Of a DNA stretch of 10,588 nt, positions 651 to 5,406 are shown in pieces (positions within the stretch are counted from its first letter, which is position 1; every line of letters starts with the position of its first letter). The stretch comes from a virus. The position numbers and the translations under genes are program-made. The stretch is from the UHGV virus genome UHGV-0127658, one strand, 5' to 3'. The notes under the pieces were generated by a model. It saw only the letters and a program-made list of their open reading frames with translations, was not told the origin of the DNA and searched no databases.

Positions 651-947
651 TCAGAACTCCATCTGGATTTGTTCAGAACGCTCGGTTGCCGCCGGGCGTT
701 TTTTATTGGTGAGTCCATCAAGCGCATACTTAAAAGCCCTGCTAATCGGACTGATGTCTGATGCCATTCCGAAAGCACACAAGACCGAAGCAATAAATCT
801 CCAATCCGTTCTGCTTATCTTCGATTCATGACAGCCAATCATCTTTGCCAGACCGCGCTGGGTAATAGCTGACAGATTGATAAGTAAATCTGTTTCTGCG
901 CGATCAACGTCACGCTGTGATAGTTTGCTGTAACTTGTTCTTTCCAT
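651..947 (-). CDS. cII: CII transcriptional activator (lysogeny establishment), chimeric: lambda-type C-terminus with a divergent N-terminal two-thirds
   Basis: 98-aa minus-strand ORF. The last ~20 residues, TNKKRPAATERSEQIQMEF, match what I recall of lambda CII; the preceding part does not. The spacer to the O start (619-650) also looks lambda-like. Position between cro and O is canonical. Confidence 0.85.
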   Translation of the reverse strand: MERTSYSKLSQRDVDRAETDLLINLSAITQRGLAKMIGCHESKISRTDWRFIASVLCAFGMASDISPISRAFKYALDGLTNKKRPAATERSEQIQMEF

Positions 948-1088: not shown

Positions 1089-1304
1089 TTAAGCGGCTTT
1101 GTGTTCCGGCGGGAACACGTCATCAAGACTGACTTTTGCGCCTAACTTGTTTAGGCACGCAACAAGAGCACGGCATGTTTTAAGGTCTGGGAAGCGACGA
1201 CCAGATTCCCAATGTCCGATAGCTCCCTGTGTGCATCCAACTGCCTTAGCAAGTGTTGTTTGAGAGATATTCAGTGACTCTCGATATTTTCGTAGGTTGC
1301 TCAT
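1089..1304 (-). CDS. cro: Cro-like HTH (XRE-type) repressor, 71 aa
   Basis: The ORF-track entry 1089..1397 is trimmed to the internal ATG at 1304-1302, which is preceded by GGAGGG (1313-1308). Protein MSNLRKYRESLNISQTTLAKAVGCTQGAIGHWESG... has a helix-turn-helix whose recognition-helix motif TQGAIGHW is mirrored in the divergent cI (TQGGIGHW). Position and divergent orientation relative to cI fit cro. Not lambda Cro by sequence. Confidence 0.75.
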   Translation of the reverse strand: MSNLRKYRESLNISQTTLAKAVGCTQGAIGHWESGRRFPDLKTCRALVACLNKLGAKVSLDDVFPPEHKAA

Positions 1305-1420: not shown

Positions 1421-2074
1421 ATGAAATGGTATGAACTGGCTAGATCCAGAATGAAAGAGCTCGGCATAACTCAAGAGAAGTTAGCCGAAGAGCTAGGTAT
1501 GACGCAGGGTGGGATTGGACACTGGTTGCGCGGATCTCGTCATCCATCTCTTAGTGATATTGGTGTGGTGTTTAAATACCTTGGTATTGATAACATATCA
1601 TTCAACCACGACGGGACATTTTCACCTGTTGGCGAATACTCATCGGCCCCAGTTAAAAAACAATATGAGTACCCTGTTTTTTCTCATGTTCAGGCTGGGA
1701 TGTTCTCTCCAGAACTCAGAACCTTTACCAAAGGCGATGCGGAGAGATTGGTAAGCACAACCAAAAAAGCCAGTGACTCTGCATTCTGGCTTGAGGTTGA
1801 AGGTAACTCAATGACCGCACCAACAGGTTCCAAGCCCAGCTTTCCTGACGGGATGTTAATTCTGGTTGACCCTGAGCAGGCTGTTGAGCCAGGCGATTTC
1901 TGTATAGCCAGACTTGGTGGTGATGAGTTTACCTTCAAGAAACTGATCAGGGATAGCGGTCAGATGTTTCTACAGCCACTAAACCCACAATACCCAATGA
2001 TCCCATGCAATGAGAGTTGTTCCGTTGTGGGGAAAGTTATCGCTAGTCAGTGGCCTGAAGAGACGTTTGGGTGA
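1421..2074 (+). CDS. cI: CI prophage repressor (HTH DNA-binding domain + LexA/S24-like autocleavage domain), chimeric
   Basis: ORF-track 1373..2074 starts at TTG; I prefer ATG 1421 (AAGGA at 1408-1412, MKWYELAR...). The C-terminal ~135 aa ([28 protein letters not shown]...GNSMTAP...[12 protein letters not shown]...[12 protein letters not shown]) is near-identical to my recollection of lambda CI, including the Ser/Lys catalytic dyad context. The N-terminal ~80 aa is unrelated to lambda CI but carries an HTH. Confidence 0.85.
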
Positions 2075-2173
2075 TGTGACTGCATGTAATTTATCAAAAG
2101 CGCACATACCCTATGCTAAACAACTTACTGATTAATTTACTGAAAATCATTTATTAAAAAATAAGGATTGCCA

Positions 2174-3025
2174 ATGAATTTTTCGGAAGAAAAAAATAAA
2201 GATTTCCCCAAAAAAGTACAAACTTCGCTATTTGAAGTAGATTGTAATGACGGATACTCATTTGTAGATGTCTTGAAGACATGCGAAAATTTCAAACAAA
2301 ACTATGACTTTGAGTACTCTAACGACACTCGGGCAAGGATAAAAAGTCTAATAGTTAACGATGACCAAATCTTTGCTGGGATAACACTCTATGAGCCCAA
2401 AGCTTTGGTCCCGGTAACTCCAAAAGATGGAGACCATAACGATTTGCAGGATGTAGATAATTATGATAAATGCCATATATTCTTGCTTGCAACAGAAAGC
2501 AATATTCTAACAATTTTTCAACTATCAGGAACTCATCCTTTATCTAAGTTAAAAAAAATATTTAGCCTCATGAATATCAATGTGAATATTTCTGAGAAAC
2601 TCAACAAAGATGCACTTGGCAAGATAATAAAAGATGGAATACGCTCCATCAGCCTAAGTATTGAAACAACAAAAGAAGATCTAGAAGAGACAAAAGCAAC
2701 ATCATTAGGTATCACTGGAAAAGCTAAAGAAGCTTTGTCAAGATTATTTGAGAAAGAGCAAGATGATGACAACTCTTTCTATGGGCTTCTGACTCTTGAC
2801 AAGAGACATAACCCAAAACTCTTAAATATTGCGAACAAAAATCCAAGCCTGATCATTGATGAATTATCGGAAGAGTTCTTCATCACAACATCAAAAGGCC
2901 AAGCGATCAAAAGCTCTGAAATCAAAACAAAAAAAGATTATTACACAAGAAAGTATGGCTCTACCACCATAAAAGCGGAACACGCTAAGGAAATTCTTGA
3001 GCACTTCAAGGATTTCATACTATAA
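2174..3025 (+). CDS. Hypothetical soluble protein (~283 aa) at the rexA position; candidate sensor component of a prophage exclusion/abortive-infection pair
   Basis: ORF-track 2168..3025 (TTG start); I prefer ATG 2174 with AAGGA at 2163-2167. Lys/Glu/Asp-rich, no TM segments, no P-loop or other motif I can recognise. Co-directional and immediately downstream of cI. Sampled 60-bp lines give roughly 27% G+C versus roughly 55% in the flanking lambda-like genes (hand count, not a full computation). Confidence 0.7.
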   Translation: MNFSEEKNKDFPKKVQTSLFEVDCNDGYSFVDVLKTCENFKQNYDFEYSNDTRARIKSLIVNDDQIFAGITLYEPKALVPVTPKDGDHNDLQDVDNYDKCHIFLLATESNILTIFQLSGTHPLSKLKKIFSLMNINVNISEKLNKDALGKIIKDGIRSISLSIETTKEDLEETKATSLGITGKAKEALSRLFEKEQDDDNSFYGLLTLDKRHNPKLLNIANKNPSLIIDELSEEFFITTSKGQAIKSSEIKTKKDYYTRKYGSTTIKAEHAKEILEHFKDFIL

Positions 3026-3062
3026 TGGAGGGTTGTACGTATAACCAAAGGGGGAGGTGTGA

Positions 3063-3554
3063 ATGAGAGGTAAAGATTGGAGTTATATTTTTTCCATAAT
3101 CTTTTTTATCTGCCTTTCTCTTGTATTAACTTATTATTTACATGATAAGGTTAGATATAACAAAGAGTTGCTTGGACTTGTGGCAAATATATTTTCAATA
3201 TTAACAGGGTTTCTGTTACTTGTTATAACCACAAGTGGAGACGTAGCATCGTTTACAGAAGGTAAATCAAGATCAGAAAAGTATGCAACTAAGAGGAAAT
3301 TCGAAATTCGGTTTTCTCGTTACATGATGCTTTTTTACCTCTATCTTACAGTCTTGTGCTTAATATTCTTCTACTACATGCTGCTGCCACCAGGAGACAC
3401 CAGTAAAATCTTAGCAAGCAAGCCGCCTGTGACCAACCTGAGTCTGGCACTTGAGTTTATTATATGCTGGCTAAGCATAATTTCATTTGGATGCTCTTTT
3501 TTCATACCAATAAAGCTGAAACAGATTTATAACGAAAAACTCAAGCAACAATAA
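3063..3554 (+). CDS. Hypothetical small inner-membrane protein (163 aa, four predicted TM helices) at the rexB position; candidate membrane effector
   Basis: ATG 3063 preceded by GGGGGAGG (3050-3057). Four hydrophobic stretches of about 20 aa: WSYIFSIIFFICLSLVLTYYL, LLGLVANIFSILTGFLLLVITT, YMMLFYLYLTVLCLIFFYYMLL, LSLALEFIICWLSIISFGCSFFIPI. Same AT-rich composition as the upstream gene. Topology resembles RexB-type proteins, but the sequence is not what I recall for lambda RexB. Confidence 0.75.
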   Translation: MRGKDWSYIFSIIFFICLSLVLTYYLHDKVRYNKELLGLVANIFSILTGFLLLVITTSGDVASFTEGKSRSEKYATKRKFEIRFSRYMMLFYLYLTVLCLIFFYYMLLPPGDTSKILASKPPVTNLSLALEFIICWLSIISFGCSFFIPIKLKQIYNEKLKQQ

Positions 3555-3580
3555 CCCGGTCTCAGCGCCGGGTTTTCTTT
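3554..3580 (+). terminator. Rho-independent terminator closing the cI / rex-position operon (t-imm analogue)
   Basis: Stem ACCCGG (3554-3559) / CCGGGT (3568-3573) with loop tctcagcg, followed by TTTCTTT (3574-3580), directly after the membrane-protein stop. Confidence 0.6.
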
Positions 3581-3763
3581 GCCTCACGATCGCCCCACCT
3601 AAAAACACATAACCAATTGTATTTATTGAAAAATAAATAGATGCAACCCACTAAACCACGCAATTCTGATCTCTCCTTACATCGCCGAGGCAATACATCC
3701 ACGCTAAAAAACAACACTATTAAATACAAAGCGTTATAAAAAACCACGCCAACTTACAACAAA

Positions 3764-3797
3764 TTGTATTGATCTTGTAAAGTACATATCGTACTAT
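3764..3797 (+). promoter_or_regulatory. Candidate pL promoter with overlapping OL operator
   Basis: -35 TTGATC (3769-3774), 17-bp spacer, -10 TACTAT (3792-3797). The 15-bp palindrome AGTACatatcGTACT (3781-3795) and the inverted copy of the OR 13-mer (3777-3789) overlap the spacer and -10. It is upstream of nutL and N. Confidence 0.5.
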
Positions 3798-3843
3798 TTA
3801 ATCGTCAGCAGGACGCTGGAAGCCAAATGGAACAGACTGGCAG

Positions 3844-3986: not shown

Positions 3987-4259
3987 ATGTCCAGAAAAAC
4001 AGAATTTAAAGGCACCGCAGCTTCTCGCCGTAGAGCTCGTCGCGCAAATCTGCAAAGTCAGGAGGCGATCAGCTCCGACAAGCTACACAGGCCAACCCCT
4101 TCACGAGTGGTCTTGCAATGCAAGCGCAAACCAGCAATGAGAGCAGAAGTGATAACTCTGACAACGTTGACCAGAAAATATGAAGGTTCAACTTGTCTTC
4201 CGAACGTAGCCATTTACGCGGCAGGCTACAGGAAATCAAAACAACTGACGGCGAGATGA
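3987..4259 (+). CDS. N: N-type transcription antitermination protein (P22 gp24-like C-terminus), 90 aa
   Basis: The ORF-track entry 3915..4259 is trimmed to ATG 3987, preceded by GGGAGG (3976-3981). Arginine-rich motif near the N-terminus (TAASRRRARRANLQ). The C-terminus LPNVAIYAAGYRKSKQLTAR closely resembles what I recall of the P22 gene 24 product (…LPGVALYAAGHRKSKQITAR). First gene after pL/nutL. Confidence 0.75.
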   Translation: MSRKTEFKGTAASRRRARRANLQSQEAISSDKLHRPTPSRVVLQCKRKPAMRAEVITLTTLTRKYEGSTCLPNVAIYAAGYRKSKQLTAR

Positions 4260-4274
4260 TAAATCATTTGCTAA

Positions 4275-4856
4275 TTACTTGTTTTTGCCATGCTTATCCT
4301 GAGCGATAAGTTCATCCATAAGACTGTCTTTCTTCCCAGCAAACCTAATGTAGCACTCATTTCTATAGCGTTCCGGGATAACAAAACGGTCGATTTCAGG
4401 ATATCCAGTAGCAGAAGGTATCCGAATAAGAAGCCCTTTTTCGAGCAATGAGATTGCTTCAGGGCTTCCCTTTTCTGTCTTTAGCTGGTTATTCGCGGCT
4501 ACAGCGAATGCCAAATACGCTCTTTCTCCAAGAGTTAACGAATCAAACAAATCTTGCACATATTTTTCTTCTTTAGATTTGCGCTTCTGAGCAGCGGATA
4601 CCTCAATTCTTTCAGTCACAGCGTGATAAGCGGAATTAACAACACCGTTAAGCACATAGCTAACGCAGAACAACAGGATGTAATACATCCAATAATGAGG
4701 AAGGATTTCTGGATTATGCAGGTTTATCCATTCTTTTACGCTTACCGGCATAACAATAATCAATATGATCAGGATGATTAGCATATGAATCAACTGTTTA
4801 AGTGTCATTCCTTGCAGGAAAAAATGCATTAGTTCCTGCCACCATGAGTTGTTCAT
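4275..4856 (-). CDS. sieB: SieB-like superinfection exclusion membrane protein (193 aa), antisense to the pL operon
   Basis: Position between N and ral on the opposite strand is as in lambda and P22. Size is close to the ~192 aa I recall for P22 SieB. N-terminal hydrophobic segments (LIHMLIILIILIIVMPVSV, WMYYILLFCVSYVLNGVV). An alternative in-frame start exists at 4829. Assignment rests on synteny and topology, not verified homology. Confidence 0.55.
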   Translation of the reverse strand: MNNSWWQELMHFFLQGMTLKQLIHMLIILIILIIVMPVSVKEWINLHNPEILPHYWMYYILLFCVSYVLNGVVNSAYHAVTERIEVSAAQKRKSKEEKYVQDLFDSLTLGERAYLAFAVAANNQLKTEKGSPEAISLLEKGLLIRIPSATGYPEIDRFVIPERYRNECYIRFAGKKDSLMDELIAQDKHGKNK

Positions 4857-5069
4857 CGGCGTTTCTCTTTTGCTCTCTGTAGGGGTGAATAGAGTTTATC
4901 CGATTTCTCGCTGTAGGGGTACACGAGAACCACCGAGCCTGATGTGGTTAAAAGACAGGCACAATCTTTACTACCGCAATCCACTATTTAAGGTGATATA
5001 TGGAAGAAGAATTTGAAGAGTTCGAAGAGCATCCTCAGGATGTGATGGAACAATACCAGGACTATCCGT

Positions 5070-5270
5070 ATGACTACGACTATTGATAAAAATCAATGGT
5101 GTGGACAATTCAAGCGATGCAATGGATGCAAGCTGCAATCGGAATGCATGGTTAAGCCTGAAGAAATGTTTCCTGTAATGGAAGATGGGAAATATGTCGA
5201 TAAATGGGCAATACGAACGACGGCAATGATTGCCAGAGAACTTGGTAAACAGAACAACAAAGCTGCCTGA
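5070..5270 (+). CDS. ral: Ral-like restriction-alleviation protein, 66 aa
   Basis: 66-aa ORF at the lambda ral position (after N and sieB), the same length I recall for lambda Ral. Cys-rich N-terminal part (CGQFKRCNGCKLQSEC). Recognition is by synteny and size; I cannot verify the sequence from memory. Confidence 0.6.
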   Translation: MTTTIDKNQWCGQFKRCNGCKLQSECMVKPEEMFPVMEDGKYVDKWAIRTTAMIARELGKQNNKAA

Positions 5271-5406
5271 TAGTGGCCTTTATTTTTGGCATAAATAACA
5301 GAATAAACACTGCACTGTGTATTCATTCCAACGAGTGAATACACGGAGAAGTGTCGCTCGTAACTAAACAGGAGCCGACTTGTTCTGATTATTGGAAATC
5401 TTCTTT

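Follow-up and report, generated by a model that had tools for sequence, protein, structure and literature searches.

The window analyzed here, a stretch of 10,588 nucleotides (10.6 kb) from the virus genome UHGV-0127658, corresponds to the immunity region and early-left genes of a lambdoid prophage. Its repressor gene raises the question of how a protein with the C-terminal domain of lambda CI comes to carry a different DNA-binding domain, and what this means for the immunity that it confers.

Organization of the Locus

The gene order is that of lambda, cII-cro-OR-cI-(rex position)-OL-N, with sieB and then recombination genes beyond.

651-947, minus strand: cII
1089-1304, minus strand: cro, encoding 71 amino acids of the HTH_3 type
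1305-1420: OR, the 116-bp region between cro and cI
1421-2074, plus strand: cI repressor gene, 217 amino acids plus stop, from the list of open reading frames
2174-3025, plus strand: unannotated gene in the rexA position, 283 amino acids, a candidate divergent RexA-like protein
3063-3554, plus strand: unannotated gene in the rexB position, 163 amino acids, a protein of four hydrophobic helices by its hydropathy profile
3553-3574: terminator hairpin, from a terminator scan
about 3720-3800: OL
3987-4259, plus strand: N, identified by Pfam
4275-4856, minus strand: sieB

With cro divergent from cI, three operator repeats in the space separating the two genes and a further three ahead of N, this is a lambdoid immunity region. 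The start of cI is slightly ambiguous. The ATG at 1421 gives a protein of 217 residues and the ATG at 1415 one of 219 residues, whose sequence (MKMKWY...) matches the start of the 219-residue homologs (MKTEWY...); many database entries begin at the ATG at 1379, giving 231 residues. Translation may in fact begin at 1415 instead of at 1421. Within CI, Pfam places an HTH_3 domain at residues 9-56 (E = 1.9e-10) and a Peptidase_S24 domain at residues 85-207 (E = 2.6e-28), the domain pair of LexA/CI-type (S24) repressors.

The Two Parts of the Repressor

Against the lambda cI reference, taken from NC_001416, the window CI scores E = 1e-108 (BLASTP), and the resemblance divides the protein into two unequal parts. 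The features that follow from this comparison are:

1421-1663, plus strand: DNA-binding head, residues 1-81, HTH_3, of the "MKWYEL" type
1661-1669, plus strand: bracket of the recombination junction, codons 81-83, corresponding to lambda CI mature residues 100/101, from three-way site comparison and the start of the BLASTN block at 1664
1664-2075, plus strand: lambda-allele block, comprising the linker with the cleavage site and the S24 protease/oligomerization domain, from BLASTN
1694-1699, plus strand: Ala92-Gly93, in VQAGMF, aligned with the lambda Ala111-Gly112 self-cleavage bond
1808-1810, plus strand: Ser130, aligned with the lambda nucleophile Ser149 in an invariant column
1937-1939, plus strand: Lys173, aligned with the lambda general base Lys192 in an invariant column

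Residues 82-217 are identical to lambda CI mature residues 101-236 (precursor 102-237) at 134 of 136 positions (98.5%). The earlier note had claimed near-identity to lambda CI from about residue 80, and the alignment bears this out. The two replacements, in lambda mature numbering, are W129L (L110 here) and V201M (M182 here). At the nucleotide level, the block matches lambda 37637-37226 without gaps at 94.66% identity (BLASTN), with 22 mismatches; 20 of these are synonymous, which points to purifying selection on cI. The right-hand edge of the homology lies one base past the cI stop codon. The block is coextensive with the lambda CI fragments 101-236 and 101-229 seen in structures 8gmu and 2ho0, and the window protein shares with lambda CI (NP_040628; 3bdn, 1f39, 2ho0, 8gmu) the tail, the cleavage bond, the Ser149/Lys192 pair and the oligomerization surfaces. 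The Ala-Gly bond is invariant in 12 homologs. By alignment, both the predicted Ser/Lys dyad of S24 proteases and the predicted linker cleavage bond of LexA/CI-type repressors are in place.

The head is a different matter. Over residues 1-81, identity to lambda CI is just 20-25%, varying with the alignment used, and 40% at the nucleotide level; the head is 20 residues shorter than that of lambda and has no counterpart of the first lambda residues (STKKKPL...). It had been described as unrelated to lambda, which goes too far: the low identity stands, but both heads are HTH_3 domains in Pfam. On these comparisons they are remote protein-level homologs with no detectable nucleotide relationship. 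The head is 100% identical in Stx phages and ∼50-56% identical to the repressors of Salmonella phages, including the C2 proteins of phage L/ST64T.

Cro and the Operators

The recognition helix of the head lies around the motif TQGGIGHW, which reappears in Cro as TQGAIGHW, as the earlier note had pointed out. The CI head and Cro are 35% identical over 62 amino acids (E = 1e-12), and by this similarity Cro is a paralog of the CI head. Phage 434 shows the same kind of relationship between its repressor and its Cro. Cro itself is an HTH_3 protein (Pfam, E = 4e-12) of the type found in 434 and P22, rather than one with the lambda Cro fold.

Six putative operators of 17 bp with a TACA-N3-YGTA core lie in OR and OL:

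1332-1348: putative OR1 (AAATACAATATGTACTT), proximal to cro, identical to an operator annotated in AP005153 and an exact match to TACANNNYGTA
1364-1380: putative OR2 (AAATACACATTGTGCAT), identical to an operator annotated in AP005153
1390-1406: putative OR3 (CAGTACAAAGCGTAATA), proximal to cI, one base different from an AP005153 operator and an exact match to the pattern
3722-3796: putative OL with three sites, from the sequence, the AP005153 annotation and pattern matches
3722-3738: putative OL site AAATACAAAGCGTTATA
3755-3771: putative OL site with core AACAAATTGTA
3780-3796: putative OL site AAGTACATATCGTACTA

TACANNNYGTA has four exact matches in the 10.6 kb, against 0.36 expected, and every one is located in an intergenic region, either cro-cI or rexB-N. 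Three of the six putative operators are identical to those annotated in AP005153 and the remainder nearly so. They also resemble the operator consensus of the epsilon34 repressor, WTACRAWWTGTAT (PMC2629481). A fourth candidate between OR1 and OR2, GAATACAAGTAAAAATA, has no right half-site and was rejected.

Both the operators and the HTH_3-type Cro are unlike those of lambda. No member of the lambda operator family (TATCACCGCCAGTGGTA) occurs in the window within 3 mismatches, and with a head only 20-25% identical to that of lambda the locus falls outside imm-lambda. Together, the head, cro and the six operators are consistent with an immunity module whose specificity is unlike that of lambda, which lends indirect support to the proposal that the repressor is heteroimmune. 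A consensus sigma-70 promoter scan finds neither PR nor PRM in OR, and these promoters were placed only by the AP005153 annotation, by analogy and by eye. A weak −10-like element lies at 1402-1407 (TAATAA); a cI mRNA started from it would be near-leaderless, as in lambda.

Proposed Mode of Action

By analogy with lambda CI, dimers of the window repressor would bind these operators through the head, whereas the tail would mediate dimerization and pairwise cooperativity and, probably, looping between OL and OR. Activated RecA would then stimulate self-cleavage at A92-G93, parting head from tail and leading to prophage induction.

The arrangement of the operators bears on this scheme. The centre-to-centre spacings are 32 bp between OR1 and OR2, 26 bp between OR2 and OR3, 25 bp between OL1 and OL2 and 33 bp between OL2 and OL3. 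The corresponding spacing in lambda is shorter, at 23-24 bp, so that pairwise cooperativity identical to that of lambda is not to be assumed. A reading in which the repressor dimerizes as lambda CI does, but binds without lambda-type cooperativity or looping, so that the switch is more like the non-cooperative one of 933W, draws on these spacings, cites the W129L and V201M changes beside them, and is in keeping with the varied strategies of Stx phage repressors (PMC5977221). We nevertheless consider it rather unlikely, given a tail 98.5% identical to that of lambda; the cooperative scheme modeled on lambda CI remains our preferred one.

The Junction and Its Origin

Where the two parts of the repressor meet, the change is abrupt. 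Measured in windows of 10 codons, identity to the lambda nucleotide sequence leaps at residue 82, from 0.23-0.57 to 0.83-1.0, a step-like profile rather than uniform divergence along the gene. The boundary can be placed more closely by a three-way nucleotide comparison of the window, lambda and L003, the Citrobacter prophage locus that encodes homolog P0002. At sites that distinguish lambda from L003, the window is L003-like almost without exception up to nucleotide 1661 and lambda-like from 1669. The junction therefore lies within the inter-domain linker, where the earlier note had expected it, 10 residues ahead of the Ala-Gly cleavage site and at the 5′ edge of a stretch of linker coding sequence that is conserved in all tail alleles.

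The relatives of the two parts differ accordingly. Among 120 listed homologs, out of 863, those whose heads come nearest to that of the window CI (P0002-P0007, 77-83% head identity) have tails just 79-85% identical, whereas lambda shows the opposite pattern, with a head 20% and a tail 98.5% identical. Taken together, these comparisons make it very probable that cI encodes a natural domain chimera, a lambdoid prophage maintenance repressor in which a separate immunity module is joined to a lambda-allele tail. Such a gene would have arisen when heteroimmune lambdoid phages recombined, the left crossover falling where the conserved linker coding sequence begins. The lambda tail may have entered this lineage, or transfer may have run in the reverse direction; the donor lineage of the tail cannot be assigned, because both head families are also joined to the P0002-type tail allele. 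At the nucleotide level the tail block differs from lambda by 5%, nearly always at synonymous sites, which indicates that the exchange is not recent. Elsewhere in the window, identity to lambda is 100% over 1-713 and 98.5% over 4877-5357, against ∼5% silent divergence in the cI tail, and this inequality implies that the pieces of the mosaic are of different ages.

Two other accounts of the gene fare much worse. It could be a decayed, non-functional remnant of a cryptic prophage, with a likeness to lambda that serves no present function, as database labels like "putative cI repressor protein for prophage CP-933H" and the premature stop reported in the VT2-Sa copy (PMC3430580) might suggest. This is very improbable, since the open reading frame is intact with every catalytic residue present, the excess of synonymous differences from lambda speaks for purifying selection, cro, cII, N and the operators around cI are all intact, and the same gene occurs in isolated phages that are plaque-forming or inducible (2G7b, PhiR11_1, Stx2 II and 1717). 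Vertical descent from a lambda-like cI, with a head diverging fast under immunity selection and a conserved tail, would fit the shared HTH_3 fold at 20-25% identity and the generally greater variability of heads than tails across the homolog set, but is effectively refuted by these alignments: third-codon-position identity to lambda is 86% in the tail block and 33% in codons 1-81, changing exactly at codon 82, so that silent sites differ too; the window tracks the Citrobacter relative (75-85% nucleotide identity) before the junction and lambda after it; and the tails of the head relatives are far less similar to that of the window than is the tail of lambda.

Occurrence of the Chimeric Repressor

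This chimera is already known. The cro-cI segment is 97.5-99.6% identical at the nucleotide level to 62 phage records, including the Stx1 phage AP005153, Stx2 II (AP005154), 1717, YYZ-2008, the PA series, 2G7b and PhiR11_1. Smith et al. (2012; PMC3430580) named this repressor variant CI2c, and stated that the lambda repressor, CI2a, has its carboxy terminus in common with CI2c and an amino terminus of its own that is unique, implying different DNA binding. GenBank likewise annotates a lambda-like CI, the AP005153 entry reading "CI protein; similar to phage lambda CI" and including putative operators. The window gene is the same gene as CI2c, which is found in AP005153, AP005154, 1717, YYZ-2008 and VT2-Sakai and in the non-Stx phages 2G7b, PhiR11_1 and ev017: identity over cro-cI is 97.5-97.6% with Stx2 II, 1717 and YYZ-2008, and a single residue (M182, where AP005153 has V) separates the window CI from that of AP005153. 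The window does differ from the Stx phages in its downstream cassette, which matches only 2G7b and PhiR11_1. A 2022 survey assigns this repressor to clade I of the Stx-phage CI proteins, with 61% overall identity to lambda CI (PMC8951638). The BAA2326 (O104:H4) repressor, also reported to be 61% identical to lambda CI, was considered and rejected as the same protein, its footprinted operators (ATAACTGTGCGTAATG and others) and neighboring BsuBI genes being at odds with the window.

The same architecture, a head of this sub-family followed by a lambda/HK97-like protease tail, is found in the epsilon34 repressor and in C2 of phage L/ST64T. The epsilon34 repressor has a lambda-like C-terminal domain, and its head is akin to the heads of L and VT2-Sa (PMC2629481), but its tail is ∼80% identical to that of lambda (PMC2629481), compared with 98.5% for the window. 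Modular exchange of the same kind has been described for the BP-4795 (cI1a) and 933W (cI1b) repressors, with carboxy-terminal halves that are 100% identical and amino termini that differ (PMC3430580), although there the 933W-type tail is unrelated to the lambda allele.

The chimera is also common. Of 5426 complete E. coli genomes, 776 contain the junction-spanning segment 1421-1700 at coverage of at least 80%, among them Nissle 1917 and ATCC 11775, and 1201 contain the lambda-allele tail, at 1423 places and in up to three copies per genome, joined to at least three different heads. From these counts, the head described here is the commonest partner of the "lambda" tail. Its combination with that tail is commoner than lambda's own in sequenced E. 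coli genomes, and CI2c ranks among the most frequent repressors of E. coli prophages. The locus is in this sense a textbook case of modular evolution, in which immunity specificity (head, cro and operators) is swapped independently of the induction and oligomerization module, and the CI2c repressor controls the stability of many Stx1 and Stx2 prophages as well as of prophages in strains such as Nissle 1917.

The presence of several tail copies in one genome means that some strains hold multiple repressors with the same oligomerization domain. Co-resident heteroimmune prophages could conceivably form mixed dimers, or cooperative or looped complexes, through these identical tails, an idea that follows solely from the near-identity of the oligomerization domains and that we regard as decidedly unlikely. 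If true, such mixed complexes would couple or mutually destabilize lysogenic switches, through subunit poisoning or synchronized induction.

Head and Tail Shuffling among Homologs

Among the 120 homologs there are at least four head types and two tail alleles, the lambda type and the P0002 type. One E. coli protein, P0115 (L005/L006, 3001-3645), has a third head type (MKTMHEIIGERIKSL...), and its identity to lambda CI, at 100%, is confined to the final 97 residues. This puts its junction close to lambda residue 140, within the tail and downstream of the linker junction of the window. As judged from these alignments, P0115 stems from a separate exchange that had another crossover point, and head/tail shuffling is recurrent in this family of CI repressors.

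The Rex-Position Cassette and cII

Homology to lambda ends at the cI stop and resumes at 3546, 9 nt before the stop of the 163-residue open reading frame. From this gap, the cassette at 2174-3554 replaces rexA-rexB gene for gene. Its first gene is probably co-transcribed with cI, and its G+C content is 0.33-0.36, against ∼0.46 for cI. Neither protein has a Pfam or PADLOC match or a significant BLASTP match to lambda RexA or RexB, which places the pair outside the RexA and RexB sequence families. The 283-residue protein has no sequence match in the PDB and just nine homologous clusters in 5.8 billion proteins. Fold comparison of the rex-position genes was the sole search to give a lead; Foldseek against BFVD returned uncharacterized phage proteins and RdgC, at low TM-scores. 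In the 163-residue protein, hydropathy comparison reveals four hydrophobic segments arranged like those of RexB. The cassette probably encodes a Rex-like exclusion pair, very divergent and missed by present annotation.

At 3546-3675 lies a 130-bp stretch with 90% identity to lambda 35833-35708, which comprises the last part of rexB and sequence downstream of that gene; the stretch contains the terminator hairpin, which is lambda-like. Many heteroimmune phages share this stretch, and in the mEp332 immunity region it bears the annotation "terminator." Swapping of the rex-position cassette may use it as a right-hand homology anchor.

On the other side of the immunity region, cII is also an intragenic chimera, with its junction at nucleotides 713/714. 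The lambda-identical segment 1-713 corresponds to lambda 39303-38591 and covers the N terminus of O and the last ∼21 codons of cII (...LTNKKRPAATERSEQIQMEF), and for the remainder of cII the AP005153 annotation gives similarity to HK022 CII.
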